From the NCBI GenBank assembly GCA_964566225.1, contig CAZMHV010000001.1:149963-213962 (forward strand): a stretch of DNA of 64,000 nt, read 5' to 3'. The DNA is from an uncultured Gammaproteobacteria bacterium (GTDB taxonomy: Bacteria > Patescibacteriota > Patescibacteriia > Magasanikbacterales > UBA922). Both the position numbers and the translations under genes were made by a program. How positions within the stretch are numbered: the stretch's first letter is position 1; every line of letters starts with the position of its first letter. Below the pieces are notes generated by a model. It was not told the DNA's origin and searched no databases. It was given only the letters and a program-made list of their open reading frames with translations. Shown piece by piece: positions 3,506-58,867 of this stretch.

Positions 3506-5499
3506 AAAATTTGGGAACTCCATTTTTTGAAGGATTATTTGACGAGAGTTCGTACGAAGTTTCGTCAAAGCGAACAAAATTCAATTGGGTTGAGGAGTCT
3601 TTTGTATTTGATAAAGAAACAGGTAAACAGGTTGCCAGTATCCAGAGCAATGAGTATATTGGGAGTTCTCTCACGAGGCATAGACTCTATGCCTTCTTGG
3701 TTATTTTAGGTTGTATTTATGTTATTTTGTTGGTTAAAATAATTTTTTTGCAGCTGGTTCATGGTGGATCATATGCACAAAAAGCACAAGGTAACCGTCA
3801 ACGTATTATTCCTATTGCTGCTGAAAGAGGTCTTGTATTTGATCGCAATGGTGTGGAACTTACCAAAAATATTCCCAGTTTTTCGTTGGCTCTTATTCCA
3901 CAAGATTTGCCACGCAATTCTGCTGAACGTGAAAAAATTGTAACACGACTGGCAGAAATTACTCACCAAGATCAAAAAAGTATTCGTGATACACTTGAAG
4001 AATACGGCGCCTACAGCTACGAGTCTATTGTGATTGAAGAAGATATTGACTATGAAACAGCACTTCAACTACAAATTGAAAGTGCGGATCTGCCTGGTAT
4101 TTATATTAAGCGTGGAAGTAAACGCTTGTATATTTTGGGTGAAAATAGTCGCGGTGAGACAACAACGTCAACTTTGTTATCTCTCTCGCATATTTTAGGA
4201 TATGAGGGAAAATTGAATCGTAAAGAACTCGACAGTTTGTATACAAAAGGATATCTTCCGTCAGATACTATTGGCAAAAGCGGGATTGAAAAATATTATG
4301 AGACAGAGTTACGTGGAGTGTATGGAAAACAAAAAATCGAAGTCAATGCTGCTGGGAAACAACAATCGAGTATTGCTGAAGAAGCTCCTCACCCTGGGGC
4401 ACAACTCACGCTTTCGGTTGATACTATAATGCAAGAAAAGTTAGAAAGTATAATGAAAGATGAAATGAATAAAGCCGGCAAAAAACGTGGTGCTGGTGTG
4501 GTATTGAATCCAAATACTGGTGAAGTGTTGGCCTTGGTAAGTTTACCTTCTTTTGATAACAATGATTTCTCAGGAGGAATTTCTGTACAAAAATATAATG
4601 AATATATAAATGACCCTGATCATCCTTTATTTAACCGAGCTTTTGGTGGTAACTATCCTTCTGGATCAACGATCAAGCCGGTTTTTGCTGCGGCTGCATT
4701 GCAAGAAGGAATTGTTTCGCCTTCAACAGCATTTTTGAGTAATGGTGGTCTTCAGGTAGGCAAGTGGTTTTTTCCAGATTGGAAAGCAGGTGGTCATGGT
4801 ATGACCGATGTCCGTAAGTCTTTGGCTGAATCTGTCAACACATTTTATTATTACATAGGTGGTGGATACAAAGATTTTACAGGTATTGGTGTAGATAAAT
4901 TGGATGAATATTTACAAAAATTTCATTTTTCAAAGGCACTGGGTATTGATGTCCCTGGAGAAGTTGATGGTTTTGTCCCTACACGAGAGTCTCGAGAAAA
5001 ATTGGGTGAAAAGTGGTACGTAGGTGACACCTATAACTTGTCCATTGGACAGGGTGACTTACTCGTCACGCCTCTGCAGATTGCTTCGATGACATCATAC
5101 TTTGCCAATGGAGGAACAATGTATAGACCATTTGTTGCCAAGTCATTTACAGATCCTATTTCCAAAGTCTCTCGTGCTACTCCTCCCACTGTACTCACCA
5201 AAAATTTGGTGGACAAAAAAAATACTGAGATTGTTCGTCTCGGTATGAAAGATTGTGTCACTCAAGGCTCTTGTCGTCGACTGGCAACCCTTCCTTTTAG
5301 TGCCGCAGGCAAAACAGGAACGGCTCAGTGGAATGCTAACAAAGCCAATCATGCTTGGTTTACCTCTTTTGCTCCATTTGAAAATCCACAAGTTGTGGTA
5401 ACTATTTTGATAGAAGAAGGTGAAGAGGGAAGTCGTATTGCGGTACCTATTGCACATGAGTTTTATAAATGGTGGGGGACCTATGATAAAAAAAATTGA
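3502..5499 (+). CDS. mrdA: Penicillin-binding protein 2 (elongasome transpeptidase)
   Basis: N-terminal TM anchor plus PBP dimerisation domain, with transpeptidase motifs SxxK (STIKP), SxN-like SIGQGD and KTGTA. The 4-nt overlap with mreD suggests translational coupling. Confidence 0.9.
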   Translation: MKNLGTPFFEGLFDESSYEVSSKRTKFNWVEESFVFDKETGKQVASIQSNEYIGSSLTRHRLYAFLVILGCIYVILLVKIIFLQLVHGGSYAQKAQGNRQRIIPIAAERGLVFDRNGVELTKNIPSFSLALIPQDLPRNSAEREKIVTRLAEITHQDQKSIRDTLEEYGAYSYESIVIEEDIDYETALQLQIESADLPGIYIKRGSKRLYILGENSRGETTTSTLLSLSHILGYEGKLNRKELDSLYTKGYLPSDTIGKSGIEKYYETELRGVYGKQKIEVNAAGKQQSSIAEEAPHPGAQLTLSVDTIMQEKLESIMKDEMNKAGKKRGAGVVLNPNTGEVLALVSLPSFDNNDFSGGISVQKYNEYINDPDHPLFNRAFGGNYPSGSTIKPVFAAAALQEGIVSPSTAFLSNGGLQVGKWFFPDWKAGGHGMTDVRKSLAESVNTFYYYIGGGYKDFTGIGVDKLDEYLQKFHFSKALGIDVPGEVDGFVPTRESREKLGEKWYVGDTYNLSIGQGDLLVTPLQIASMTSYFANGGTMYRPFVAKSFTDPISKVSRATPPTVLTKNLVDKKNTEIVRLGMKDCVTQGSCRRLATLPFSAAGKTGTAQWNANKANHAWFTSFAPFENPQVVVTILIEEGEEGSRIAVPIAHEFYKWWGTYDKKN

Positions 5500-5603
5500 T
5501 TGTGGATAAAAATTTGACGAAACACAGCGAAAACGGTACAGTATAGAAAATAATCAATAAACTTTTTCAAATATCCGCCCTGGCGGGTATATTTTATTCT
5601 CGT

Positions 5604-6068
5604 ATGGACGACTCAGTGCTCTATGTTTCTTCTGACAAGCTGTGCAAACTTCAAGAAGAACTCAAAAACTTAAGAGATGAAAAAATTCCTACCATTGCCA
5701 AACGTATCGACGATGCTCGTCAAATGGGGGATTTATCAGAAAATGCCGAATATCATGCTGCCCGTGAAGAAATGGCATGGGTACAAAGTCGTGTACTCGA
5801 ACTTGAGTATATCATTCAAAATGCTCAAATTATTTCTGAAGACGTACACAGTGGAACTATCAATATTGGTTCTACTTTTACTGTGGAAGTAAACGGTAAA
5901 AATAAAGATTTTACCATTGTCGGTGGGCAAGAAGCAGACCCATTTAGTGGAAAGATTTCCAATGAGTCGCCACTTGGCATGGGCTTTTTGGGCAAAAAAA
6001 AGGGTGATGTGGTTGAGGTCAAAATTCCAGCTGGAGTGCAAAAGTATAAGATTGTCAAAGTTCAATAA
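5604..6068 (+). CDS. greA: Transcription elongation factor GreA
   Basis: N-terminal coiled coil carrying the acidic tip (DLSENAEYHAAREE) and a C-terminal FKBP-like domain. Confidence 0.9.
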   Translation: MDDSVLYVSSDKLCKLQEELKNLRDEKIPTIAKRIDDARQMGDLSENAEYHAAREEMAWVQSRVLELEYIIQNAQIISEDVHSGTINIGSTFTVEVNGKNKDFTIVGGQEADPFSGKISNESPLGMGFLGKKKGDVVEVKIPAGVQKYKIVKVQ

Positions 6069-6211
6069 TAGCTTAAATTAGGTAAAAATTTAAACTGTTC
6101 GCTTTTTTAAAAAAGGCGTACCTTGCCCGCCGTAGTAGAAGCTGCCGCGGGTTTGCTTTTTTCGCCCAAATTTGGTATGATTTTACAGTAATTTTAGAGA
6201 AGAACTGTTCT

Positions 6212-8119
6212 ATGAACACTGAAGAAAAACAAGTCAACATCAATGACGAACGTGAAGTACGTTTACATAAAGTAGCCGAACTCCAAAAAATGGGGATTCC
6301 TTCGTTTCCGGCACAAGCAAATAAAAAAGATTCTTTGGCATTTGCGCTTGAAGCAGCCGAAGGAACTGCCATTCAAACTGCAGGCCGTATCATGACCAAA
6401 CGCGACATGGGCAAACTTATGTTTTGTCATTTGCAAGACGAAAGTACTCGCATGCAAATTGCCCTCAAAAAAGATGACCTCGGCGAAGAAAAATACAAAA
6501 CATTTTCCAAATTGATTGATGGTGGAGACATTGTAGAAATTACTGGAGAAAAATTTATTACCCACAAAGGTGAACCTTCAATTTTAGTGAGAGATTGGAA
6601 GCTCTTGACCAAAGCAGTACGACCATTGCCAGACAAATTTCATGGCGTCTCAGATGAAGAATTAAGATTGCGCAAACGTTATTTGGATTTGGTCATGAAT
6701 CCAGAACTTCGTGAGATGTTCCACAAAAAATCTAAATTTTGGGATGTGACACGCACATTCATGAAAGAACATGGATTTTTTGAAGTAGAAACTCCACTCC
6801 TCGAAACAACGACTGGTGGAGCAGAAGCCACACCATTTAAAACACATCACAATGATTTTGATCTTGATGTGTATTTGCGTATTTCTGTAGGTGAACTTTG
6901 GCAAAAACGTTTGATGGCCGGAGGCTTTGAAAAAACGTTTGAAATTGGCCGCGTATTCCGCAATGAAGGTTCAAGTCCAGACCACTTGCAAGAATTTACC
7001 AACATGGAATTTTACTGGGCCTATGCCAACTACAAAGATGGCATGAAGCTCGCTCAAGAACTCTATCAGCGTATTGCGCTTGAAGTATTTGGTAAAACCA
7101 AATTTACGAGTAAAGGCTATGAATATGATTTGGCAGGGGAGTGGCCAGAAGTAGACTATGTGGGTGAAATCAAAAAACAAACGGGTGTAGATATTTTGTC
7201 TGCGACTGAAGAAGAAATGAAAGCAAAGCTGAGTGAACTCAAAGTGGTATACGAAGGACAAAATCGTGAACGTCTCACTGACACACTCTGGAAATACTGC
7301 CGCAAAAATATTGCTGGTCCTGCATTTTTGGTGAACCATCCAAAATTGGTTTCGGCTCTTTCAAAAGCACACTCAGAGAATCCAGAACTCACGGAACGTT
7401 TTCAAATTATTATTGCAGGAAGTGAAGTGGGCAATGGTTACTCTGAGTTGAACGATCCAATTGATCAACGCGCCCGTTTTGAAGTCCAACAAAAACTTAT
7501 TGAACGTGGTGACAGTGAAGCCATGATGCCTGACTGGGAGTTTGTGGAAATGCTTGAACATGGAATGCCACCAACCTGTGGATTTGGTTTTGGTGAACGT
7601 TTATTTGCATTCCTCATGGATAAACCAATTCGTGAATGTGTGCTCTTTCCGCTCATGAAACCAGAAGAAGGACAAGAATCTACCGAAGGAAAATCCAAAA
7701 AAACCATGGTGGCACATGCGGTCTTGCTCAACACTCCAGAAGTTCCAACCTGGAGTAAACTCAATGCTGCCGCACATCTTTCGGCATCACTGGCTGCCCG
7801 TGAAGGACGTAAACTCATTCATATTGATCATGCCACAACAACCGATGGTGAGTCTATTCCCATGAATATTCAACACGCCATCATGATGAAAGAAACTGAC
7901 TCACGAACCGCTCTTTTGGAACTCAAACGCAAAGCCGATGAACTTGGACTCGTGGTAACCTGTTTTACCGAAGAAATGCGTGATTCCAGTAATGACGAAA
8001 AAGTAAAAGCCAAACAAGAAGGAAAAAGTGCAAATGATATTTCTTTTCTTGGTGTATTAGTATTTGGTGAAATGAAAGTGGTCGAAAAATTGACTGCACA
8101 ATTTAGTCTTGTAAGTTAA
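6212..8119 (+). CDS. lysS: Class II lysyl-tRNA synthetase with an extra C-terminal PTH2/DUF2000-like domain of about 140 aa
   Basis: OB-fold anticodon domain and class II motifs 1-3 (FRNEG, GFGFGERL) are present. After residue ~490 the tail aligns to the peptidyl-tRNA hydrolase PTH2 fold (MVAHAV...KLNAAAHLSA...LLELKRKADELGL...LGVLVFG...FSLVS). Confidence 0.88.
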   Translation: MNTEEKQVNINDEREVRLHKVAELQKMGIPSFPAQANKKDSLAFALEAAEGTAIQTAGRIMTKRDMGKLMFCHLQDESTRMQIALKKDDLGEEKYKTFSKLIDGGDIVEITGEKFITHKGEPSILVRDWKLLTKAVRPLPDKFHGVSDEELRLRKRYLDLVMNPELREMFHKKSKFWDVTRTFMKEHGFFEVETPLLETTTGGAEATPFKTHHNDFDLDVYLRISVGELWQKRLMAGGFEKTFEIGRVFRNEGSSPDHLQEFTNMEFYWAYANYKDGMKLAQELYQRIALEVFGKTKFTSKGYEYDLAGEWPEVDYVGEIKKQTGVDILSATEEEMKAKLSELKVVYEGQNRERLTDTLWKYCRKNIAGPAFLVNHPKLVSALSKAHSENPELTERFQIIIAGSEVGNGYSELNDPIDQRARFEVQQKLIERGDSEAMMPDWEFVEMLEHGMPPTCGFGFGERLFAFLMDKPIRECVLFPLMKPEEGQESTEGKSKKTMVAHAVLLNTPEVPTWSKLNAAAHLSASLAAREGRKLIHIDHATTTDGESIPMNIQHAIMMKETDSRTALLELKRKADELGLVVTCFTEEMRDSSNDEKVKAKQEGKSANDISFLGVLVFGEMKVVEKLTAQFSLVS

Positions 8120-21237: not shown

Positions 21238-21816
21238 CTATATATATTTACGAACTACTCCTGTAACGACTCCTCCTACACGTAGTTGTTGGCGAGGATA
21301 TATATCTGGATACTTAGGATTTGCTGCTCGTAAAAAGACTTTGTTTCCTTTTTTCATAAAGTATTTCAGTGTCCATTCGTGATCAACCTCTGCAACTACC
21401 ATACTTCCTGGTTTTGCAGTACTGTTTTTGTTCACAATTACCATATCACCCTTTACAATACCAGCATCTTTCATAGAGTCGCCATTTACTGTGAGTAAAT
21501 AGGTGGCACTTGGTTCATGTATGAGGAGGTCATTGAGAGAAACGAAATCAACTACTTCATCTGCATCGGTTGGGAATCCTGCTTGGATAGTACCAAGCAC
21601 TCTGATGCCATAGAGTTTTGTGGTAGGGATAAGTGTCCCTCCATCACTCTTACGCATGAGTCCATCTTCAATAAATTTTTCGACATAGGAATGCACTGAT
21701 CCTTTGGATGTGATGCCAAAAACATTGGCAAGTTCCGTGTACGTGGGCAAACGTTTTTGTTTGCGATAGTACTTGATGAGTTGAGTTTTTCTTTTCTCAT
21801 AGAGGGTGTCAGTCAT
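21238..21816 (-). CDS. lexA: LexA repressor (S24 peptidase)
   Basis: N-terminal wHTH, and a C-terminal domain with the catalytic Ser in VNGDSM and the Lys in VVTGVVRKY. The start is set at the MTDTLYEK Met, which sits directly downstream of two SOS boxes. Confidence 0.85.
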   Translation of the reverse strand: MTDTLYEKRKTQLIKYYRKQKRLPTYTELANVFGITSKGSVHSYVEKFIEDGLMRKSDGGTLIPTTKLYGIRVLGTIQAGFPTDADEVVDFVSLNDLLIHEPSATYLLTVNGDSMKDAGIVKGDMVIVNKNSTAKPGSMVVAEVDHEWTLKYFMKKGNKVFLRAANPKYPDIYPRQQLRVGGVVTGVVRKYI

Positions 21817-21839
21817 ATGAAAAAAGTTAGAAGTAAAGA

Positions 21840-21851
21840 GAACGTACGTTC
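21840..21851 (-). promoter_or_regulatory. Cheo-type LexA operator (SOS box 1): GAACGTACGTTC, a perfect palindrome
   Basis: Matches the GAAC-N4-GTTC consensus of Gram-positive-type LexA boxes and lies ~25 nt upstream of the lexA start. Confidence 0.7.
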
Positions 21852-21866
21852 TATATATATTATAGA

Positions 21867-21878
21867 GAACATACGTTC
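21867..21878 (-). promoter_or_regulatory. Cheo-type LexA operator (SOS box 2): GAACATACGTTC
   Basis: Second GAAC-N4-GTTC site 27 bp from box 1, with an AT-rich -10-like TATATATATTAT between the two boxes. Confidence 0.65.
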
Positions 21879-22015
21879 TTGTGTCAACACGTGAGTTATC
21901 CACAACAAAATTCTTTTGGTTGAGAGAAAAATAGAAAAGGTACCGCTTACAAACGCTACCTTGTCTTATAACTTTTTGAAGAAAAAAGTGGATGGTGGTG
22001 TGCATCCTCCTTTCG

Positions 22016-22369
22016 TTATTTTTGGACCACATAACTCCAGCCTTTGAAGCATGAGCACGCCCACTGTCCAACAAGGGCGCTTTCGTAGCCAGAGGCTAGA
22101 GTTTGGTGAGAAGAGGCTTCCATGGCCTCCAAAAAGCCCTGTGACGCATGAAATTCAGCGATTTTGACGAGATCTGCACTGCTTTGACCGTGAGCCATCT
22201 GGCTTTGCGGATAGCAAGCAACAAATCCTCCGTCTCGCTGAAGTCCTTCGTTTGTACGGTGAATCCGTTTGAGGGCTTCTTGGTGGTCTTTGGTTACCTC
22301 TTGAGTGTGGTAGTAGGCTCCTCCACAACCATAAGAGACACAAACAGACACCAAAATGAGGCGCTGCAT
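22016..22369 (-). CDS. Hypothetical small lipoprotein-like protein (weak call)
   Basis: ORF with a signal-peptide/lipobox-like N terminus (LILVSVCVSYGCGG). GC content (~50%) is above the genome background. Confidence 0.3.
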   Translation of the reverse strand: MQRLILVSVCVSYGCGGAYYHTQEVTKDHQEALKRIHRTNEGLQRDGGFVACYPQSQMAHGQSSADLVKIAEFHASQGFLEAMEASSHQTLASGYESALVGQWACSCFKGWSYVVQK

Positions 22370-22390
22370 ACGACTCCTTATGACGCAGCG

Positions 22391-22711
22391 TCACTTCAAC
22401 AGGATGGTCCGACACCACCCAATTTTTTCTTCAATTACAAAGTCAGAGTGTACCTCAAAATTTTTATAAATGCAACCATCAAAAACAAAAACATCCCAAG
22501 TTGTCTTGAGATGTTTTATAGAAGCAAAGGCGCACGCGAACCCGAAGAGGTTCAACCAGTGGACGTCGATCAGGAGGCTGAAGACGCTGACCCTGCTGTA
22601 GATGGCACGGGAGATGAGCCCCATGGCAATCGTGGCCAGGATGGCCGCGCCGTAGACGAAGAAGGTGTTGAGGGTCCGATACTGAGAATCGTTCACGTTG
22701 ACTCCTGGTAG
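22391..22711 (-). pseudogene. GC-rich fragment encoding a membrane-protein-like peptide; probable remnant of horizontally acquired DNA
   Basis: Roughly 60% GC over ~170 bp, encoding ...YRTLNTFFVYGAAILATIAMGLISRAIYSRVSVFSLLIDVHW... with no credible start. It is overlapped by an antisense ORF and lies adjacent to a tRNA. Confidence 0.3.
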
Positions 22712-22844
22712 AGAAACAGCTGGGGAGGCTGTTTTGAAAAGAACCCCAGAGGGCGAGACTATTTTCCCCAAACGCCGCTCCGGAAGAAAACCCCCCTCTT
22801 TTGAGAGACTTTTTCTTCCAAAGCCAAGTTGACCAAAGATACTA

Positions 22845-22872
22845 ACAAAAAACAACCCTTTTGTCAAGGGCT
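22845..22872 (-). terminator. Rho-independent terminator downstream of tRNA-Val
   Basis: Hairpin AACAGCCCTTGACAAAAGGGTTGTT followed by TTTTTT on the minus strand. Confidence 0.6.
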
Positions 22873-22875
22873 GTT

Positions 22876-22952
22876 TGGTACGCACTGAGGGATTCGAACC
22901 CACGACCCTCTCGGTGTAAACGAGATGCTCTAACCAACTGAGCTAAGCGCGC
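22876..22952 (-). tRNA. tRNA-Val (anticodon TAC), CCA encoded
   Basis: The hand-folded cloverleaf has a 7-bp acceptor stem with two G-U pairs, D stem GCTC/GAGC, and a perfect 5-bp anticodon stem TCTCG/CGAGA with loop TTTACAC. The T arm GTGGG-TTCGAAT-CCCTC has one T-T mismatch. Confidence 0.8.
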
Positions 22953-39157: not shown

Positions 39158-42100
39158 TTACACTACAATACTCACTAATTTTCCTTTGACATAAATCACT
39201 TTTTGAGGAGTTTTGCCATCGAGAAATTTTTGAACATTTTCTTGTGCTATTGCTTGTGCTGTAATATCTTCTTCAGTAATATTTGCATCAACTTCGAGAC
39301 TGGCACGAACCTTGCCATTGACCTGCACCACAATCGTGAGTGTATCTGAGACGATTTTTGCAGCATCATGAGTTGGAAATGGTTGAATCGTTACAGAATC
39401 GGTGTGTCCTTGATTTGCCCACATTTCTTCGGCAATATGTGGTGCAAATGGTGCCAAAATTTTGATAAACAGTTCAAAGTGTTCCGGTGCAATAGTTTCT
39501 TCTTTGCTGAGCACGTTGACGAGTTCCATCATTTTGGCAATCGCTGTGTTATATTGCATATTTGATAGGTCTTCACCAACTTTTTTGACAGTGAGGTGAA
39601 CGGTTCGTTCGGCTTCGGATGAAGGTGCTGCTGATGCAGTCACTTTTTCTTGCAATTTCCACACACGATCAAAAAATCTGCGTACGCCTTTGACACTGTC
39701 CGTATTCCAAGGCTTGGTTTGCTCGAGTGGACCCATGAACATTTCATACACGCGCATGGTGTCTGCGCCGTATTCGTTGATCACATCCGTTGGATTGATC
39801 ACATTCCCCCATCGTTTACTCATTTTGCGATTGTCTTCGCCGAGAATAAGACCTTGGTGACGAGTTTTGGTAAATGGTTCGTCAAAGGTGATATAACCAG
39901 CATCGTACAAAACTTTGGTAAAGAAACGTGAGTAGAGCAAATGTCCATTCACATGTTCTTCTCCGCCAAGATAGAAATCTACTGGCATCCATGTTTTGAG
40001 AGCCTCAGGGGAAGCAAACGCACCATCATTTTTTGGATCAAGATAACGATAATAATACCATGATGAACACATGAATGTGTCGAGGGTGTCCGGTTCACGT
40101 TTCCAACCTTTGCCATATTTTTCTTCGACTCCTGCATTGAATGATTCAGCATACATGAGTGGAGATTGACCGGTTGGTTTGAAGTCGACGTCGTCGGGGA
40201 GGATGACCGGAAGGTCTGTTTCGGGAAGTGCTTTCAAATCCATGCGAACTGGCGCGAGAACTTCTTGCAATAATTGAGGGAATTCTACAAAACCATCTTG
40301 CGCACCAAAGTGCCCAGCATTGCGCATACGTGTAACACGTGCAAAAGGCAAATGCTGATTGAAAAATTGTTGGGTAGAAGCCAGATCAATGTATGGATCA
40401 GTAGTAGAAAGAATAACCACAACTTCACCTACATTTTCTTGCACTTTTTGGAAATCAACAGGAGTACTCATGAATGTTTTGAGCATCTCCCACATGTTGT
40501 CTCCATCACAAAAATTACGAATGTTGGTGTACCAAATATCTGTTGGCAAAGTCGGTGCAATGAGCACAAGCTTACGCAATTTGTGAGTCTCTGCTAATTT
40601 TAAAGCATTCCAACAACTGAGTGATCGTCCAATAACAATACTATTTCCATCTCCGACTACTGGTTCTGCAACAGCTTGCCATTTTTCAAAGACGGGTAAA
40701 TTTGCTTCGGGAAGTTCAGGCGTAGAAACGTTGATGTTTTTTGCTCTCAACTTTTCTCCAAGCCATGGATGAAAATGATCAGCAGGACTACTTCCCCATG
40801 CATGAAGTTGCAACACTGAACTTGGTGCCTGTTGGTATTGTTCCAATAATTCTGGCGAAACATTTTCAACATGAAGCATCGGAATCGGTGCACCCCAAAA
40901 ACGCTGGCGAGACACAGACCAGTCGCGGAGTTTGTATTGCACTTTGCGGGTGCCGATTTCACGTTGTTCGAGGTGTTCGATGATTTTCTTTTTGGCTTCT
41001 TCCACAGAAAGACCGTTCAAAAAATCTGAATTTGTGAGGTGACCAGATCCGGTGTGAGGTTGGTTGGTAATTTCCATATCGGGTCCTTTCACCACTTGAC
41101 GAATTGTTAAACCAAACTTCGTTGCAAACTCAAAATCCCGCTCATCATGCGCAGGCACAGCCATAATCGCACCGGTTCCGTAGGATGCAAACACATAATC
41201 TGCCATCCACACAGGAATCTCTTCACCTGAAACAGGATTTACAGCCTTGAGGCCCTTGAGTTCAACACCTGACTTTTCTTTTTGGGTTTGACGATCCATG
41301 TCTGTTTTCAATTTTGTTTCATCAATATATTTTTTTACTTCATCCCAATTCGTGATCAAAGATTGCAATTCGGGAACCAAAGCATGTTCTGGAGCAACCA
41401 CCAAATACGTTGCACCAAAAATAGTATCTGGGCGTGTGGTAAACACTCGAATATTTTTGGCAGTTTGCAAAACAGGAAAATCAACTTCTGCACCTTCACT
41501 TCGTCCAATCCAATTGCGCTGGCGCATTTTGGTTTCTTCGGGCCAGTCGATGCGATCAAGTCCTTCAAGAAGTTTGTCAGCGTAGTCAGTGATTTTTAAA
41601 TACCATTGTTCCATGGGGCGTTGCACCACAACCGTGTCACAGCGTTCACATTTTCCTTCACCAGTCACCTGTTCGTTGGCGAGCGCAGTTTTACAACTAT
41701 CACACCAATTTACATTTTGATTTTTGCGATATGCCAAACCTTGTTTGTACATGAGGAGAAAAAACCACTGTGTCCATTTGTAATAATCACTATTGTGACT
41801 CCCCACTTCTCTGTCCCAGTCAACTGAAATTCCGAGGCCTTTGATTTGACTCCGAAAGTTATCAATGGCAGCGTTAGTACTCACGCGTGGATGTACATTG
41901 GTTTTAATCGCATAATTTTCAGCAGGCAAACCAAAAGAATCCCAGCCAATCACCTGGAGCACCTTTTTGCCCATCATACGTTGATAGCGCGCATAAATGT
42001 CACACGCTGTGTACACTTCGGCATGACCCACGTGAAGACCGCTTCCTGAAGGGTATGGAAGCTGTGGGAGGATGTACATTTTATTTTCGGGAGTAACATT

Positions 42101-42181
42101 GGTGGGTGTCTTATACAGGTTTTGCTTTTCCCACTCTGCTTGCCACTTTGGTTCAATTTCTTTGGGGTTGTATTGATTCAT
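39158..42181 (-). CDS. leuS: Leucyl-tRNA synthetase carrying a ~215-aa inserted RBBP9/YdeN-type serine hydrolase domain
   Basis: HIGH (HVGHAE), CP1 editing motifs (TTRPDT, AHDERD) and KMSKS (KMSKR) are all present. Residues ~436-655 align to the PF06821 family (HFHPWLGEKL, GRSLS, TTDPYI, NAGHFGAQDGFVEFP). Confidence 0.9.
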   Translation of the reverse strand: MNQYNPKEIEPKWQAEWEKQNLYKTPTNVTPENKMYILPQLPYPSGSGLHVGHAEVYTACDIYARYQRMMGKKVLQVIGWDSFGLPAENYAIKTNVHPRVSTNAAIDNFRSQIKGLGISVDWDREVGSHNSDYYKWTQWFFLLMYKQGLAYRKNQNVNWCDSCKTALANEQVTGEGKCERCDTVVVQRPMEQWYLKITDYADKLLEGLDRIDWPEETKMRQRNWIGRSEGAEVDFPVLQTAKNIRVFTTRPDTIFGATYLVVAPEHALVPELQSLITNWDEVKKYIDETKLKTDMDRQTQKEKSGVELKGLKAVNPVSGEEIPVWMADYVFASYGTGAIMAVPAHDERDFEFATKFGLTIRQVVKGPDMEITNQPHTGSGHLTNSDFLNGLSVEEAKKKIIEHLEQREIGTRKVQYKLRDWSVSRQRFWGAPIPMLHVENVSPELLEQYQQAPSSVLQLHAWGSSPADHFHPWLGEKLRAKNINVSTPELPEANLPVFEKWQAVAEPVVGDGNSIVIGRSLSCWNALKLAETHKLRKLVLIAPTLPTDIWYTNIRNFCDGDNMWEMLKTFMSTPVDFQKVQENVGEVVVILSTTDPYIDLASTQQFFNQHLPFARVTRMRNAGHFGAQDGFVEFPQLLQEVLAPVRMDLKALPETDLPVILPDDVDFKPTGQSPLMYAESFNAGVEEKYGKGWKREPDTLDTFMCSSWYYYRYLDPKNDGAFASPEALKTWMPVDFYLGGEEHVNGHLLYSRFFTKVLYDAGYITFDEPFTKTRHQGLILGEDNRKMSKRWGNVINPTDVINEYGADTMRVYEMFMGPLEQTKPWNTDSVKGVRRFFDRVWKLQEKVTASAAPSSEAERTVHLTVKKVGEDLSNMQYNTAIAKMMELVNVLSKEETIAPEHFELFIKILAPFAPHIAEEMWANQGHTDSVTIQPFPTHDAAKIVSDTLTIVVQVNGKVRASLEVDANITEEDITAQAIAQENVQKFLDGKTPQKVIYVKGKLVSIVV

Positions 42182-42201: not shown

Positions 42202-43008
42202 TTATTCTAAATTATTATTTACCATATCCAAAACTCTTTTGTGGAGAAGTGGATTTGAGATAACATAATCTTGTCTGCCGCGTTTCCATGGATTGCCATG
42301 ACTATCACTTACCACAGCACCAGCCTGTTCACAAATAAATAAATTTGGAAGTAAGTCCCAATCAAGGCCAGCATTTCCAAATGCAAAATCAATTGATCCT
42401 TTTGCAATATACGACAGCATTCCTGCACATCCAAAGTTTGACATGGCAGCATTGGTACTCAGAGCAAAATTTGATACGGCTGCTCTGTATTTTTCAAAAT
42501 AATCACCATATAAACCAAAAGGAGAACAACGAAACATTATCCCATACCCTTTTTCAAGGGTATCTGTATTGTTCACCATAATTTTTTTGTCATTCACAAA
42601 TGCACCCACTCCTTGCTCAGCAAAAAAAAGTTCATCAGAAATTGGATGGTATACCGCAGCCATATGCATGGTTCCATTTTTCAAAACAGCAATCATCACT
42701 GCCCAGACTGGAATACCAATTGCAAAATTTCTCGTGCCATCAATGGGATCAATCACCCATTCATATTCAGTCTCAGCTGCATTGATATCTTCGGTAAGCT
42801 CTTCACTTTTAATATGATGCGTTGGATACTTGGAATGAATTTGCTTTACCAAAAATTCACTTACTGCTAAATCAGCTATCGTAACAAAGTCTTTGCTATC
42901 TGCTTTGGTTTGAATTTCTACTCCTTGATAAAAATAAGGTTTGGCAATATCCCCCGCTTCACGAATAATCTGCTTTAAAAAGTCTCTCATATCAGAATTT
43001 GGTGTCAA
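42202..43008 (-). CDS. Inositol monophosphatase family protein (SuhB-like)
   Basis: Metal-binding motifs WVIDPIDGT and a WAVMIAV...GGMHMAAV-type core. Confidence 0.8.
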   Translation of the reverse strand: MTPNSDMRDFLKQIIREAGDIAKPYFYQGVEIQTKADSKDFVTIADLAVSEFLVKQIHSKYPTHHIKSEELTEDINAAETEYEWVIDPIDGTRNFAIGIPVWAVMIAVLKNGTMHMAAVYHPISDELFFAEQGVGAFVNDKKIMVNNTDTLEKGYGIMFRCSPFGLYGDYFEKYRAAVSNFALSTNAAMSNFGCAGMLSYIAKGSIDFAFGNAGLDWDLLPNLFICEQAGAVVSDSHGNPWKRGRQDYVISNPLLHKRVLDMVNNNLE

Positions 43009-43094
43009 AAATATACCCGGTATGATACAAAATTTTCTCTAAAATTGCAAGAGTTTTGGCTTTTTTGGCTTGACAGAGAGAGAAAAATAGTATA

Positions 43095-43375
43095 GTGTAC
43101 GACTGGCTCAAAAGGAGGGAGCCAAGCTATGGTGGTTGCCACCATGCATTTCACGTCTCTCGAAGATGCGGTCACGTTTTTGTTGACCGCAGCGGCAGTG
43201 TTTGGAGTTCTGCTCAGCGTGGGAATTTCACGACGCAACAAGCGTGACCCACGACGACTGCGACTACCGGGCGAGGAATAAGTCCCCTCGCCACCCCCGA
43301 GAGACTCTTCCCCTAGGCTTTGTCGAGCCCAGAGGAAGAAAAAGATCCCTGTCTATGAGGGATCTTTTTTATTTT
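43095..43375 (+). ncRNA. Candidate GC-rich structured small RNA; alternatively a 50-aa membrane peptide ORF at 43129..43281
   Basis: Promoter-like TTGACA-N17-TAGTGT, four or more stable hairpins in ~250 nt, ~55% GC against a ~38% genome, and an intrinsic terminator at 43341..43375. No + strand gene lies downstream. Confidence 0.35.
43341..43375 (+). terminator. Bidirectional rho-independent terminator, shared by the small + strand unit and minus-strand gdhA
   Basis: Hairpin AGATCCCTGTCTATGAGGGATCT flanked by T-runs on both strands. Confidence 0.75.
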
Positions 43376-43379
43376 TGTA

Positions 43380-44612
43380 TTATCCACGAGCCTTCATGGC
43401 ATCGCTGACTCTTTCTACTGCCCGGACAAATGCAGCTACACGCATATTCACATTATATTTTTCTTTGGTTGCCCAGACTTCATTAAAGGCACGCACCATG
43501 ATTGTTTCAAGTTTTGCCAAAACTTCTTCTTCGGTCCAATAGTAATTGGAAGCATTTTGTACTTGTTCAAAATAACTGACGGTCACACCACCGGCATTGG
43601 ACAAAATATCTGGTACAAACAAAATTCCTTTGCTGTGCAAAATTTCATCGGCTTCTGGAGTGACTGGGCCATTGGCAAGTTCTACAATCATCTTGGCTTG
43701 AATACGTGCGGCATTTTCACCAGTAATAACATTTTCAAGTGCGGCTGGAACAAGAATGTGGACACCGAGTTCGAGCAATGCTTCGTTGCTCACCGCTTCA
43801 CTGCCAGCAAAGCCAACCACAGAACCAGTTTGTTCTTTGTGTGATTCAAGTGCGGCGACATCAAGACCATTCATATTCATCACACCACCTTTGGAGTCAC
43901 TCGCAGCAACAATTTTGTATCCTTCATGGGCCAAAATTTTCGCCATAAAACTTCCAGCATTGCCAAACCCTTGTACTGCCACAGTCACGTCACTCGCATT
44001 CCATCCCATTTTTTTGACTGCTTCTTTGGTTACATACACACCACCTTGCGCAGTAGAAAATCCACGTCCAGCAGAACCACCCAGGCTGAGGGGTTTGCCC
44101 GTAATCATTCCTGGTGCATGTTGCCCCACCAACTTTTCGTATTCATCGAGCATCCAGCCCATGATTTGTGGTGTGGTATATACGTCTGGTGCAGGCACAT
44201 CTTGTGTTGGGCCAAGGTACTTATAGATTTGACCAATGTAACCACGAGAGAGACGTTCGAGTTCAGCTTCGGAAAGTTCTTTGGGATTAACAATAATACC
44301 ACCTTTGCCACCACCAAGTGGAATACCCACCACAGAACACTTCATGGTCATCCAAAATGACAAAGCTTTTACTTCGTCGAGACTCACATTCCAGTGATAG
44401 CGAATACCACCTTTGTATGGGCCACAGGCATTGTTGTATTGACTTCGAAATCCCGTAAACACTTTGACCTCTCCACTATCCATTTTTACAGGGATAGATA
44501 CGGTGAGCACACGATTTGGCTGCTGGAGCTCTGCCAAAATATTTTTATCAAGATTGAGTGTAGAGGCTGCCAAAGAAAGCTGCTTCATGGCATTTTCAAA
44601 TGGATTATTCAT
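43380..44612 (-). CDS. gdhA: Glutamate dehydrogenase
   Basis: Glu/Leu/Phe/Val dehydrogenase signature (KGGIRYH, GGGKGG) and a Rossmann region (VAVQGFGNAG); start set at MNNPFENAMKQ. Confidence 0.9.
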   Translation of the reverse strand: MNNPFENAMKQLSLAASTLNLDKNILAELQQPNRVLTVSIPVKMDSGEVKVFTGFRSQYNNACGPYKGGIRYHWNVSLDEVKALSFWMTMKCSVVGIPLGGGKGGIIVNPKELSEAELERLSRGYIGQIYKYLGPTQDVPAPDVYTTPQIMGWMLDEYEKLVGQHAPGMITGKPLSLGGSAGRGFSTAQGGVYVTKEAVKKMGWNASDVTVAVQGFGNAGSFMAKILAHEGYKIVAASDSKGGVMNMNGLDVAALESHKEQTGSVVGFAGSEAVSNEALLELGVHILVPAALENVITGENAARIQAKMIVELANGPVTPEADEILHSKGILFVPDILSNAGGVTVSYFEQVQNASNYYWTEEEVLAKLETIMVRAFNEVWATKEKYNVNMRVAAFVRAVERVSDAMKARG

Positions 44613-44887
44613 ATGCAATACAAATAGAAGTAAGTACACAGTAGTGTACCTAAAACAGTCAACCACCGTCAAGTATGGTGAGGAAAAATAAAACAGCCCC
44701 TGCAGAGGGCTGTTTCCGAGCTCGTTGTTCCCCCCTGCTGTTGCAACAACAGAGAAGAGAAGTTTTTTTTCTTTTTGCCTTTAGGTAAATTTTTCCCATT
44801 GGCAATGTTTGTTTGATTTGTGATAATTATACTCTTTTTTTTGGTTTTAATCAAACCAAGTTTTACACAGTTTCTACACAGTATAAA

Positions 44888-45277: not shown

Positions 45278-46324
45278 TTATGCTGCGGCTGCAAGATCTG
45301 GGGAGTCCTCGGCAGGAGCCTGGGTTTCTGCGGCGTTGGCAGCGTTTCTTTGCATCTGTACTACCGTGGCAGTAGGAGTTTGTTCGTCATCTCGTGCTAC
45401 CGGAGGAGCTTCTTCTTTTTGTGCAGGTGTTTCGACTGCCTGTGCCGTTTGTGCCTCTTTTAGTTCTTTTTGTTTTTGTCGTTCTGCTCTTTTTTGAGCA
45501 ACCATGTCTTCAACCTGTGCCGCTGGCATATTTTTTATTTCTTCTTTCACTTCTTCTGGTGTTTTTTCTTTTGCTGGTTGTTCTTTTTTGGAGGCTTCTA
45601 TTGTTTTTGCAGTCTCTGCCTTTTGTTTGGCTTCTGCAACTTCTTGGCTATCATCAAAATAAAAAAATGTGAGTTTGGCTTCTTGGGGTTTGCCGTTCAG
45701 CATATATCTGTGAACTGCTTCAAAACCAGTGTCTTTATTGAGTGTATCTCTGTGTTTAATATGAAATAGTCCTTGTGCTTCACCAAGTCCTGCCGAAGCG
45801 TTTCGTAATAAGTTTTGCATCTCTTGTGCTCGACTAAAGGGAATAACAAACTGTCCACCTTCAATTTCACTTTTTTGATTGCCGAGCTTGGCCATATTCA
45901 CCTCATTTTTCACAGCATACACTTCTTTAAATTGTTCACATGCTTCAGACCACATTTTAAAAATATTTCCAGAAACATTTGATTTTTCAACTTGTTTTTG
46001 TACTACTTGTTTGCCTTCTTCAAGTTGATCTCCTTTCATAAGCGCACTTGCCTCAGCAGCAGTATCAACTTCTGTTTCTTTTACCAAATTAACAGATTGT
46101 CCGAGTGCATCTTTTACTTTTACACGCTGCAATTCTACTTCTGGACCATGACCATCATGTCCAAGACGAGCTTTTCTTTCTCCAAACAAAGACCGGAATG
46201 TTTCTACTTTTCCACTTCCTATTTCTTGAGAAGGTTGCTCTGCTTGTTTTTCTTGTTCTCGGTCATCGTTTGCTGCCTCAGGAGGAAGTTCTTGTGAGGC
46301 AATTTGTCTGGCGGTTTGGGTCAT
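45278..46324 (-). CDS. Hypothetical protein, Glu/Lys/Gln/Ala-rich with low-complexity termini
   Basis: Long ORF of native composition between trxA and infB; no recognised motif. Confidence 0.45.
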   Translation of the reverse strand: MTQTARQIASQELPPEAANDDREQEKQAEQPSQEIGSGKVETFRSLFGERKARLGHDGHGPEVELQRVKVKDALGQSVNLVKETEVDTAAEASALMKGDQLEEGKQVVQKQVEKSNVSGNIFKMWSEACEQFKEVYAVKNEVNMAKLGNQKSEIEGGQFVIPFSRAQEMQNLLRNASAGLGEAQGLFHIKHRDTLNKDTGFEAVHRYMLNGKPQEAKLTFFYFDDSQEVAEAKQKAETAKTIEASKKEQPAKEKTPEEVKEEIKNMPAAQVEDMVAQKRAERQKQKELKEAQTAQAVETPAQKEEAPPVARDDEQTPTATVVQMQRNAANAAETQAPAEDSPDLAAAA

Positions 46325-46394
46325 AGTGAAAAAATAAAGAGACACCCCAGTCAGGGCGTCTCATGTTTGGGGTATGGTAATAATACCAAATTTT

Positions 46395-50367: not shown

Positions 50368-50474
50368 CAAGACTTGACAGAGGTGGTATTATAGGATATA
50401 TTTGGCTATCTTTCCGCAATTCTGCGGCGAGATCTGGCTCTGTGCCAGAATCCTTAAAACCAACTCTGTGGTAG

Positions 50475-51068
50475 GTGAATATGGACCACCCTGTCGACAT
50501 CATGTTCGACAATCCTCGGGTGGACAAGTTCACCCGTGATTTATTTGTCGATCTTGCGATCGACCTCGGACTCGGCTTGTCTGAGCCAGACATTGAATTG
50601 ACCACCCTGGTGGTGAAGCAATTCATGAATGGTTTGTACACGCTCCTGTGTGAGTGGGAGGCTGGAACCGGGAGAACTGACAACCCGTACGCTTTGCTGC
50701 TCCTGCTGAACGAAATGGCAACGTTTCCCATGCGAGAGGACTGGAAAGCGCGCACACGGCAGCAGTTCGAATGCTTCCAGTTTCAACTGAGGCACCGATT
50801 CGAGCAAGAACCATGGGCCAAACGTCAGTCACCGCAGGATCCGACCATCCGAGAAGTCCAACCTGCTCGGTGGTGGAAGATCATGACCGGCACCGGCATG
50901 ATCTTGTTTCACAGGTTCCTCGTGAGAGACCTGAGGAAACGCGACCTGCACATTCGACGTGGGATACGTACGGTCGCACGAGCGAACCGAGCCAAGCGCA
51001 TGCCCATGGCTACGGCCACAGCCGAAACTGATGCTACGTCCGACGACGAGCACAAGCGTTCGGCCTGA
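50475..51068 (+). CDS. Hypothetical protein encoded in a GC-rich (~58-60%) island
   Basis: ORF with balanced amino-acid composition and GC-rich codon usage unlike flanking genes; the competing antisense ORFs are Arg/Pro-rich. Confidence 0.45.
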   Translation: MNMDHPVDIMFDNPRVDKFTRDLFVDLAIDLGLGLSEPDIELTTLVVKQFMNGLYTLLCEWEAGTGRTDNPYALLLLLNEMATFPMREDWKARTRQQFECFQFQLRHRFEQEPWAKRQSPQDPTIREVQPARWWKIMTGTGMILFHRFLVRDLRKRDLHIRRGIRTVARANRAKRMPMATATAETDATSDDEHKRSA

Positions 51069-51451
51069 GCTACCCTACAGAGGAAATCACGTGGTGGTTG
51101 TAGAATCGTATTCTCTCCACCACGTTCCCCTGCCCTTTGGTATCAAACATGTTTGGTAACAGTGGGCAGGGTTTTGTATTTTGCAAAACAAAAAAAGAAT
51201 GTTATACTTTTTTTGTTTTGATTCTGAAACTCCGTAAATAAAACCTTTGTTCTTTACTTATAATCAACTTGAATAGAGTGAATGTTTGATGGGTAAAAAA
51301 ATAATTTTTCAATTTTCAAGAATTATTTTTCAACCCGTCAACGTTTCTCTGTTCCCCGAAAATCACCGGGGTCGTTGACTAGCCACTGTTTCAAAAAGGC
51401 AATTTCTGCCTTGCGAGACTTTGCCGATAATACGGAGAAGGGGTAAGGGTC

Positions 51452-51907
51452 TTGAAGAAACTTTTTGACCTGATCGAGGCGTTTCAAAGGCTCCTCCTGG
51501 CTCGGATCGCCGAGTACAACCTGGGCAGTCCCCCTGCCCTCTCGAGCGACCAACTGGCTACCCTGCTGGAACTCTTCAGCAAGCTCGACCGCTACGACGC
51601 GGCGTCCCTCGCCATGAGGCACACTGGCGCCAAGGCGGGCAACCGCCTCTATGAGGCGAAGCGCGAGCAGTTCTGTCTCGCCCTCCCCGAGGAGCTGCGC
51701 CCGTTCTTCGTCGAGGCGCAGACGATGGGGCGTGTCATCGCCGAGGCAGGGTGCTACACCCTGAATGACGCTCGTTGGTGGGATCCCCCACAGGTTCCGC
51801 TGCAACGGCGAGTCTTGGCGGTGCGACCGCTGCCAAGTGTCGACACTGCGTCGGAGACAGTCCGGCGAGCAATGCTCTCCCCTCGAACCGCGCGCATCGG
51901 GCCGTAG
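51452..51907 (+). CDS. Hypothetical protein in a GC-rich island (TTG start per the ORF track, preceded by GGAGAAGGGG)
   Basis: Balanced composition on the + strand against Arg-rich antisense frames, with an SD-like purine tract upstream and a strong terminator downstream. Confidence 0.4.
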   Translation: MKKLFDLIEAFQRLLLARIAEYNLGSPPALSSDQLATLLELFSKLDRYDAASLAMRHTGAKAGNRLYEAKREQFCLALPEELRPFFVEAQTMGRVIAEAGCYTLNDARWWDPPQVPLQRRVLAVRPLPSVDTASETVRRAMLSPRTARIGP

Positions 51908-51936
51908 ACCTCCCAGGTCTCCGGCTTGTATCTTTT

Positions 51937-52010
51937 GGCGCACGAACGTTTCGTGCGCCAGTCCTGATTTTTTTTATCACACTCTGTGGTAGAAAAAATC
52001 AGGACTTTTT
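51937..52010 (+). terminator. Tandem hairpin terminator closing the GC-rich island, possibly also serving minus-strand uvrC
   Basis: GGCGCACGAACGTTTCGTGCGCC followed by AGTCCTGATTTTTTTT...AAAAAATCAGGACTTTTTTATTTT. Confidence 0.7.
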
Positions 52011-58015: not shown

Positions 58016-58867
58016 TTAGGCGGCCGAGGCCACCTGCTCCTGATAGCCGAGCACCAGCGCGCTGAAGCGATCGTAGGCCAGGCGGCCCGCTTCGGTGACC
58101 TCGTCGTGCGAGAGCTCGGCGCCGGTGATGCCGGCCGCCATGTTGGTCATGAGCGACACACCGGCCACACGCAGACCACACCAGTTGGCCGCGATGGCCT
58201 CGGGCACGGTCGACATGCCCACGGCATCAGCCCCGAGGACGCGGAGCATCCGAATCTCGGCAGGGGTCTCGTAGTTGGGCCCCTTGAACGCGGCGTAAAC
58301 ACCCTGCTGGAGTTCCCCCACTCCACACTTGCTGGCCGCTTGCATGAGCATCAGCTCACCGTGACGGTACAGATTGCTCTGCCCGGGGAAACGCGGTCCG
58401 AGCTTGTTGTTGTTCGGCCCGACCAGGGGGTTCTCGCCCGTGAGGTTGAGGTGATCCACGATGGCCATGAGGTCACCACGCTTCCAATCCACCCGGATGC
58501 ACCCGGCGGCGTTGGTGAGCAGGATGTCGTTGACACCCATCTCCTTGGCCAAAAGCACCGACTGCACCACCTGCTGGGCCGTGTAGCCCTCGTTGAGGTG
58601 CAGACGACCCGCGAACGCGATGGTGGGCACGCCACTGAGCATACCCATGAACACCTTGCGGTCGTGGCCCTCGACCTCGGTGTTGATGAACGGCCACAGG
58701 GTGCGGAAGTCCACCACCAGCGCCCCCTGGTCGAACTTCTCGACCAGCTTGCCGAGGCCGCTCCCGAGCACGAGCGCGACCTTGGGGCCGGTCCAGCCAT
58801 TGGGCTTTTTCCAGGCCGCGAGACGGGGCAAGAGCACAGACATCACAGTCGAATCGAGTCGAAGCAT
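58016..58867 (-). CDS. Purine nucleoside phosphorylase / 5'-methylthioadenosine phosphorylase family (PNP family 2)
   Basis: VALVLGSGLG phosphate loop, MSTVPEA and NMAAG motifs. About 65% GC. The start is set at MLRLDS, preceded by AAGGAGAAG 7 nt upstream. Confidence 0.8.
   Translation of the reverse strand: MLRLDSTVMSVLLPRLAAWKKPNGWTGPKVALVLGSGLGKLVEKFDQGALVVDFRTLWPFINTEVEGHDRKVFMGMLSGVPTIAFAGRLHLNEGYTAQQVVQSVLLAKEMGVNDILLTNAAGCIRVDWKRGDLMAIVDHLNLTGENPLVGPNNNKLGPRFPGQSNLYRHGELMLMQAASKCGVGELQQGVYAAFKGPNYETPAEIRMLRVLGADAVGMSTVPEAIAANWCGLRVAGVSLMTNMAAGITGAELSHDEVTEAGRLAYDRFSALVLGYQEQVASAA

Follow-up and report, generated by a model that had tools for sequence, protein, structure and literature searches.

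A small, strongly folded transcription unit between the glutamate dehydrogenase and inositol monophosphatase genes of a Magasanikbacteria genome: a probable gene for a single-pass membrane peptide

The GDH-IMPase gap and its transcription unit

The window analysed here is a 64-kb stretch of DNA with an overall GC content of 0.40. The unit of interest lies on its plus strand at 43071-43375, inside the 371-nucleotide (nt) gap between the minus-strand genes for inositol monophosphatase (IMPase) and glutamate dehydrogenase (GDH). According to our analysis, it is probably a monocistronic gene for a 50-residue single-pass membrane peptide. It is not one of the classic stable RNAs, yet the fold of its mRNA is out of the ordinary. 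The features of the locus are listed below; related loci are referred to by L numbers, and ORF stands for open reading frame.

42202-43008, minus strand: IMPase gene (PF00459, by Pfam)
43022-43050, minus strand: IMPase promoter TTGCAA-N17-TATCAT, found by promoter scan, back to back with the small-gene promoter
43071-43099, plus strand: sigma-70-type promoter TTGACA-N17-TAGTGT of the small gene (-35 box 43071-43076, -10 box 43094-43099); hexamer positions also found in L164, L163 and L165
43105-43123, plus strand: predicted 5' hairpin, GGCUC paired with GAGCC, with a 9-nt loop carrying AAGGAGG (43112-43118)
43129-43281, plus strand: ORF of 50 codons and a stop, MVVATMHFTSLEDAVTFLLTAAAVFGVLLSVGISRRNKRDPRRLRLPGEE; called as a gene on two Logan contigs of the same strain, with orthologs in L164, L165 and L163
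43129-43145, plus strand: predicted start-codon hairpin AUGGUGG-UUG-CCACCAU, not conserved in L164 or L163
43155-43305, plus strand: multibranch domain (prediction only), closed by a long-range helix of GUCUCUCG (43155-43162) with CGAGAGAC (43298-43305)
43168-43190, plus strand: predicted hairpin GCGGTCA/TGACCGC
43171-43227, plus strand: predicted transmembrane helix VTFLLTAAAVFGVLLSVGI, codons 15-33, best Kyte-Doolittle window 2.34
43231-43278, plus strand: basic C-terminal tail RRNKRDPRRLRLPGEE; LRLPGE common to L164, RRLR also in L004
43270-43292, plus strand: predicted hairpin GGCGAGG/CCTCGCC, spanning the stop codon
43306-43339, plus strand: predicted fifth hairpin of 34 nt in the 3' untranslated region, immediately ahead of the terminator; its 5' arm is CU-rich, its 3' arm GA-rich
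43338-43375, both strands: symmetric intrinsic terminator (A-tract, stem of 11-13 bp, T-tract; 13 pairs at 43338-43370), shared by the small gene (plus) and GDH (minus)
43380-44672, minus strand: GDH gene (PF00208 and PF02812, by Pfam), stop at 43380

The features listed in the original prediction for this site are all present in the sequence, with small corrections. The promoter is present, with its hexamer positions conserved in three relatives, and so is the 50-codon ORF with its upstream AAGGAGG and a single predicted transmembrane helix. GC content is indeed raised, to 54-59% over some 270 nt of the unit and to 0.55-0.59 in 150-nt windows over 43100-43349. Gene calls in the window place no plus-strand gene downstream of the unit. 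The intrinsic terminator was also found, with the correction that it is symmetric and ends GDH as well. All four hairpins that had been proposed exist in the predicted fold; in the second one the base preceding ATGGTGG is T, and its eighth pair is thus U-G and not C-G as had been stated.

The unit is regarded as an independent plus-strand transcription unit because IMPase has its own conserved promoter and both flanking genes lie on the minus strand. Several Magasanikbacteria loci have conserved the -35 region of this promoter, CTAAAATTGCAAG on the plus strand, ahead of their IMPase genes. The two divergent promoters, of the forms TTGCAA-N17-TATSAT (IMPase) and TTGACA-N17-TAKNNT (small gene), have their -35 boxes separated by about 20 nt, and as a block they are conserved at 43022-43099 of the window, 1612-1689 of L164 and 411-487 of L163. 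The promoter scan did not list the small-gene promoter, since its -10 box TAGTGT agrees with TATAAT at only three of six positions.

Four other accounts of the GC-rich stretch were rejected. It is not the 5' untranslated region (UTR) or leader of IMPase, whose conserved promoter at 43022-43050 lies near its own start, nor the 3' UTR of GDH, given that a terminator directly follows the GDH stop. An antisense protein gene, called in L163 as a 118-codon ORF, is unconserved, and neither the window nor L164 holds a minus-strand ORF of at least 40 codons at this place. A repeat or mobile element was dismissed as well, as the 64-kb window contains no second copy of the unit.

The reading frame and its homologs

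By its IMPase homologs, the window is assigned to Candidatus Magasanikbacteria, uncultured members of the Patescibacteria/Candidate Phyla Radiation (CPR). The order GDH, gap, IMPase and leucyl-tRNA synthetase (LeuRS) is kept across Magasanikbacteria, while the length of the gap varies from 0 to about 2400 nt. Three loci, L164, L165 and L163, with IMPases 68-71% identical to that of the window, have a unit built to the same plan, which occupies the equivalent slot and lies on the same strand. They were obtained through exact-protein look-ups of the closest IMPases and are the orthologs readable at the DNA level, with the L165 contig ending inside the ORF. The shared design consists of a TTGACA-N17-TAKNNT promoter (TTGACA-17-TAGAGT in L164, TTGACA-17-TATGCT in L163 and TTGACA-17-TATACT in L165), GGAGG-like purines in a 5' hairpin, a start codon 9-10 nt further on and a GC-elevated ORF. 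Equivalent bidirectional terminators are present in L164, L163 and L004. The ORFs have 50 codons in both the window and L164, 53 in L163 and at least 60 in L165; those of L164 and L165 had not been called as genes. By nhmmer the window unit matches the L164 unit with E = 1.9e-7 over 282 nt. The closest relative, with an IMPase 76% identical, has a 58-residue ORF called at the same place and strand (gene call only), and the two Logan contigs of the window's own strain (L001 and L002) showed no informative differences.

A coding signature supports the peptide reading. Each of the four homologous ORFs has a net positive tail and, in its best 19-residue Kyte-Doolittle window, a hydropathy of 2.19-2.61, whereas only 0.11% of random ORFs of 45-60 codons and the same composition reach 2.0 or more. 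Hydrophobicity is retained even though the DNA that encodes the helix can hardly be aligned any more (low nhmmer posterior). In a protein-guided alignment of the whole ORF, identity between the window and L164 is 0.47, 0.45 and 0.24 at the first, second and third codon positions. In the 27-nt tail, taken from the nhmmer nucleotide alignment with L164, six of eight differences fall at third positions (p of about 0.02 by our own binomial estimate). The six LRLPGE codons differ at five sites, all five of them synonymous third-position changes; on this small sample of sequence the changes indicate purifying selection on the protein. The RRLR motif is written AGG AGG CTG AGG in L004 and CGA CGA CTG CGA in the window. 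No opposite-strand ORF is conserved between the window and its relatives. The unit thus combines a conserved short ORF with a start signal, one hydrophobic helix of membrane length and signs of purifying selection, as is expected of a small membrane protein, and the codon-periodic conservation and the helix kept in all four ORFs support this reading. A 50-residue membrane peptide had been the second choice of the original prediction, which had named codon-periodic conservation as an outcome that would tell against a non-coding RNA; the alignment shows conservation of exactly that kind.

The first choice had been a stable RNA of the 6S, SRP or small regulatory type, and this leaning is not upheld. 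No Rfam family reached its threshold in the unit of the window or in six related loci, and the whole window gave only a tRNA. At E <= 10 the region 42900-43500 returned sub-threshold noise only, the top match being sroB, which scored 25.4 bits where 44 are required and overlapped the terminator on the minus strand. ARAGORN found no tmRNA in the window. That the RNA is purely non-coding and structured, with an incidental ORF, appears very improbable to us. Such an RNA would account for a promoter and terminator without a downstream gene and for GC content that is raised in the UTRs and at third codon positions too (0.56 at third positions of the ORF); a 50-codon open frame is also not rare at this composition, at about 14% per frame by our estimate. 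It does not account for a transmembrane helix in the same frame in four taxa, against an expectation of 0.1%, for the third-position and synonymous pattern of substitution, or for the conserved ORF length and the constant distance from GGAGG to the start in all four homologs.

Similarity of the peptide to known proteins was sought widely. Searches against Pfam, NCBIfam and PADLOC gave nothing at E <= 1 except noise well below the cut-offs. A single IMPase query against GTDB genomes returned no relatives. Among 79 loci obtained from GTDB with an IMPase alignment as query, and a further 79 from a metagenome scan, none had a unit alignable to that of the window. A scan of viral contigs for the 5' hairpin pattern gave 26 chance matches and no further similarity. 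In more distant loci the slot is filled by other divergent ORFs, of 27 residues in L003, 47 in L017, 44 in L005, 181-194 in L018 (depending on the start) and 96 in L033, all GC-elevated and each with a hydrophobic helix. Their Shine-Dalgarno (SD) motifs are partly there by construction, because the script that picked them demanded an SD-like motif. Other genes or tandem IMPases occupy the slot in L084, L193 and L194. Judged from these sequences, the small gene belongs to a family that evolves fast and is confined to one subclade of Candidatus Magasanikbacteria, where its place between GDH and IMPase and its orientation are preserved.

Several observations weigh against the peptide reading. The similarity of the peptides is weak (36% over 39 residues to L164), and that of L163 is not significant on its own. 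A search of 5.8 billion proteins with the peptide and a three-sequence profile found only the window peptide itself, as did a search of 1.84 billion cluster representatives with the peptide alone. The slot ORF of L004 has no transmembrane helix. The distance of 9-10 nt from GGAGG to the start in the four homologs is long for a canonical SD, and Tsurumaki et al. (2022, PMC9297842) report that no anti-SD motif can be detected in roughly half of Parcubacteria. With its AUG buried in a 7-bp hairpin, the initiation region exceeds those of other genes in structure by about four standard deviations. Leaders in this lineage are normally unstructured and SD-free, and a start folded in this way would be an obstacle to translation. 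Finally, the extreme folding scores of the window unit and of L164, given in the next section, are not accounted for by coding alone.

A remnant of foreign DNA, that is, a horizontally acquired GC-rich fragment bearing an SD, left in a variable spot and without current function, is the least probable of the explanations considered, and we regard it as extremely unlikely. It would fit the observation that the other SD-led ORFs of the window are GC-elevated, including a PNP-like gene of 65% GC and ORFs beside tRNA-Val, and that the gap varies so widely in length, often with GC-elevated ORFs of no known family. A functionless fragment is at odds with the promoter, ORF and terminator being intact in at least four lineages whose IMPases are only 68-71% identical, with GC content that stays elevated and shows no drift to the genome level, and with the synonymous-only changes of the tail.

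Two further observations concern the slot and its flank. The GDH-IMPase gap often holds a divergent GC-elevated ORFan (L003-L054), and one of these, a non-membrane ORF of 59-61 residues, is common to L026 and L054, at 57-58% GC in loci of 37-39% GC. IMPase itself occurs as tandem paralogs in L164 (1681-3270), L084 (1900-3271) and L194 (657-2211), while the window has one copy.

RNA fold and translation initiation

The predicted fold of the unit is exceptional, as had been proposed. The plus strand has a minimum free energy of -118.8 kcal/mol and a z-score of -6.2 against 200 dinucleotide shuffles, the lowest among 160 sampled windows of 280 nt across the 64-kb stretch (mean -0.44, standard deviation 1.37), so the signal is not due to chance. 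The minus strand folds equally well (z = -7.05). Among the relatives, L164 reaches z = -6.7, and L163 and L017 only -2.6. The multibranch domain encloses the hairpins at 43168-43190 and 43270-43292. In L164 the body of the ORF is likewise predicted to be closed by a helix between early codons and the region around and after the stop, with different pairing partners, and a 34-nt hairpin precedes the terminator at the equivalent place. Most internal helices of the two predicted folds are not common to both. Compensatory changes in the 3' hairpin were seen only in a structure-guided register; the arms are shifted in the MAFFT register, and the changes were not counted as evidence. With two complete orthologs, covariation analysis is underpowered.

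These results bear on the purely non-coding reading in both directions. The lowest folding score of the window and the comparable score of L164 are what a structured RNA should give, whereas the unshared internal hairpins, the modest scores of L163 and L017 and the dependence of the compensatory changes on alignment register are not. The unit lacks the combination expected of a structured non-coding RNA, namely conserved structure with compensatory changes and no coding signature. The original argument that raised GC together with dense structure is the mark of a stable RNA does not hold in this genome either, because the other GC-rich islands of the window hold ORFs; the only family match among these is the 65% GC gene of the PNP family.

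The initiation region is as unusual as the fold. Long ORFs of the window and its relatives have AT-rich leaders, and an SD-like motif upstream of any candidate start is missing from 48 of 52 long ORFs in the window and from 144 of 156 in the related loci (about 92%; surveyed in L003-L043, L054 and L163-L165). Strong SD motifs are therefore rare here, as had been noted, and the few SD-led ORFs of the window are all GC-elevated. The Rfam scan found no rRNA gene in the window. From -30 to +30 the small gene folds at -21.5 kcal/mol, compared with -6.0 +/- 4.0 kcal/mol for 51 long ORFs. It had been noted that the SD and the start codon sit within the first two hairpins. Only the AUG is sequestered, inside the 7-bp hairpin with an unpaired probability of 0.02; the AAGGAGG is free in the loop of the 5' hairpin, with an unpaired probability of 1.0. 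Of the three orthologs assessed, two (those of the window and L164) have an exposed SD, and sequestration of the start codon is not conserved. L164 has almost the same GGCTC...GGAGGGAGCC segment, and L165 a similar one. In this otherwise SD-free lineage the conserved GGAGG may serve a purpose other than that of an SD.

The exceptional fold and the anomalous SD of the small gene might belong to a transcript with a second role as RNA beside its coding of the peptide, one exerted for instance by the GGAGG of the loop or by a C-rich CACCC just 3' of the stop codon. We consider this dual function unlikely. When the window is compared with L164, the 5' hairpin with GGAGGGAGCC ranks among the best conserved segments, two orthologs have an extreme fold, and the CACCC is present in both the window and L164 and predicted to be unpaired in the window; a GGAGG conserved in a nearly SD-free lineage would also find a use. 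Against it, the UTRs are only 55-63% identical between the window and L164, close to the coding sequence and below the flanking genes (69-79%). The GA-rich 3' arm of the fifth hairpin, GAGGAAGAAAAAGA, is in addition explained by the GDH terminator, since it is the complement of its T-tract. Dual-function RNAs such as SgrS/SgrT, RNAIII/delta-haemolysin and SR1/SR1P are similar in having about 200-500 nt, their own promoter and terminator and a peptide of 26-43 residues, and the unit differs from them in having no Rfam match. In more general terms, the transcript might work at the RNA level beside or instead of the peptide, in a lineage that is nearly free of SD motifs and may lack the anti-SD; this too we hold to be unlikely. 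Such a role could be that of a dual-function RNA or of a specialised element that recruits or titrates ribosomes. Known 5' stabilisers of mRNA (the ompA hairpin and the STAB-SD of cryIIIA) share with the unit a hairpin at the inferred 5' end with an SD-like sequence nearby; the motif of the unit differs in lying 9-10 nt before a start codon, where it could be a true ribosome-binding site.

Possible function of the peptide, and other features of the window

We return to the peptide as the favoured product. What the sequences show is how the unit is built, that it has homologs with the signature of a coding frame, that its predicted fold is extreme and that SD motifs are rare in the lineage; that the peptide is produced we infer. 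From the promoter at 43071-43099 an mRNA of some 270 nt would be made, its start placed at or close to the GGCUC hairpin by the position of the -10 box; the hairpin thus probably forms the very 5' end of the transcript. The first 19 nt would fold so as to display GGAGG in the loop, with the AUG 10 nt downstream. The loop GGAGG might recruit the small ribosomal subunit, provided that an anti-SD exists, and the predicted, non-conserved start-codon hairpin would limit initiation. The 5' hairpin and the two 3' hairpins probably stabilise the transcript; the two 3' hairpins would end it, the last of them being the bidirectional terminator shared with the convergent GDH transcript. Synthesis would in this way be set by the mRNA itself, through SD-like recruitment, a folded initiation region and a stable fold resistant to exonucleases. 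The peptide would have a short acidic N-terminus, a helix spanning roughly residues 15-33 and a tail that is strongly basic and has RRLRLPGEE at its end. By the positive-inside rule it should insert with the N-terminus out and the C-terminus in, leaving the tail cytoplasmic, and we speculate that it acts through this conserved basic tail.

As to function, our guess is a small accessory membrane protein; a toxin is not the reading we prefer. AcrZ (49 residues), MgrB (47 residues), MgtS, KdpF and CydX are examples of small bacterial proteins with a single membrane pass that offer a comparison. Like the peptide, they have about 30-50 residues, one transmembrane helix and a charged cytoplasmic tail, and they are poorly conserved and often uncalled. 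The unit differs in having no similarity in Pfam or NCBIfam, no partner protein and no operon context; its mRNA is far more structured, and its use of an SD is exceptional for its genome.

The main functional rival is a module resembling type I toxins, in which a membrane-damaging peptide is held down in translation by its folded mRNA and by an RNA antitoxin. We regard this as unlikely, though somewhat less so than an RNA-level role. In its favour are a peptide of fewer than 60 residues with one transmembrane helix and a charged tail, an intergenic position with a promoter and a terminator belonging to the unit itself, a sequestered AUG and a very strong fold, in which, for the window as for L164, a helix pairing early codons with the 3' UTR closes the ORF. 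Known type I toxin mRNAs (Hok/Gef, TisB, Fst/par, TxpA, BsrG and AapA1) resemble the unit in their hydrophobic peptide of fewer than 60 residues, in stand-alone organisation and in a strong fold, here with predicted 5'-3' closure. The bidirectional terminator shared with a convergent transcript resembles that of par/Fst of pAD1. Fast evolution of the peptide, with different small transmembrane ORFs filling the slot in other lineages, would also suit a toxin. Known type I toxins are typically patchy and multicopy, whereas the unit is present once in the 64-kb window and is inherited in one syntenic slot across several genera. It has no match to a toxin family in Pfam, NCBIfam or PADLOC, its SD is exposed in the window and L164, and the sequestration of its start codon is not conserved. 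No promoter-like site was found on the opposite strand of the unit in the window, L164 or L163 by a consensus scan, which weak or non-canonical sites, or an antitoxin RNA acting in trans, would escape.

If the peptide is made, the unit represents a new family of small proteins, one that none of 5.8 billion predicted proteins matched. Annotation misses many small membrane proteins, above all in the CPR/Patescibacteria, and in genomes as tiny as theirs a gene that stays in the same place through several genera probably matters. The unit also illustrates that a GC-rich, hairpin-dense orphan does not reliably mean a stable RNA in this genome. Parcubacteria ribosomes are reduced and may lack the anti-SD, and a strong SD-like motif with a folded leader, set against about 92% of long ORFs with neither, could reveal how initiation is organised in this group.

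Several other features of the window were recorded. A gene of the PNP/UDP-phosphorylase family (PF01048) at 58016-58867 on the minus strand has about 65% GC and an SD-like AAAGGAGAAG upstream, which fits a foreign origin. The stretch 50400-52000 is GC-rich (ORFs of 56-61%, peaks of 69%) and structured (z of -4.4 to -5.3), with overlapping ORFans without a Pfam match at 50475-51068 (plus), 51338-51943 (minus) and 51452-51907 (plus). At 21600-22950 a region of about 50% GC with z down to -4.8 adjoins tRNA-Val (22876-22952, minus); it includes SD-led minus-strand ORFs at 22016-22369 (without a Pfam match) and 22391-22696, and may be a small island inserted beside the tRNA gene. Between the genes for thioredoxin and IF-2, at 45278-46345 on the minus strand, lies a 355-residue low-complexity protein rich in A, E, K and Q and without a Pfam match, in whose place relatives have shorter or split ORFs. 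The LeuRS of the window (1007 residues, 39158-42181, minus) carries an inserted Ser_hydrolase domain (PF06821) at residues 457-637. In L003 the LeuRS (4782-7631) has a NUDIX domain between two tRNA-synt_1 matches, so inside the synthetase core, and Magasanikbacteria LeuRS appears to host variable inserted enzyme domains.

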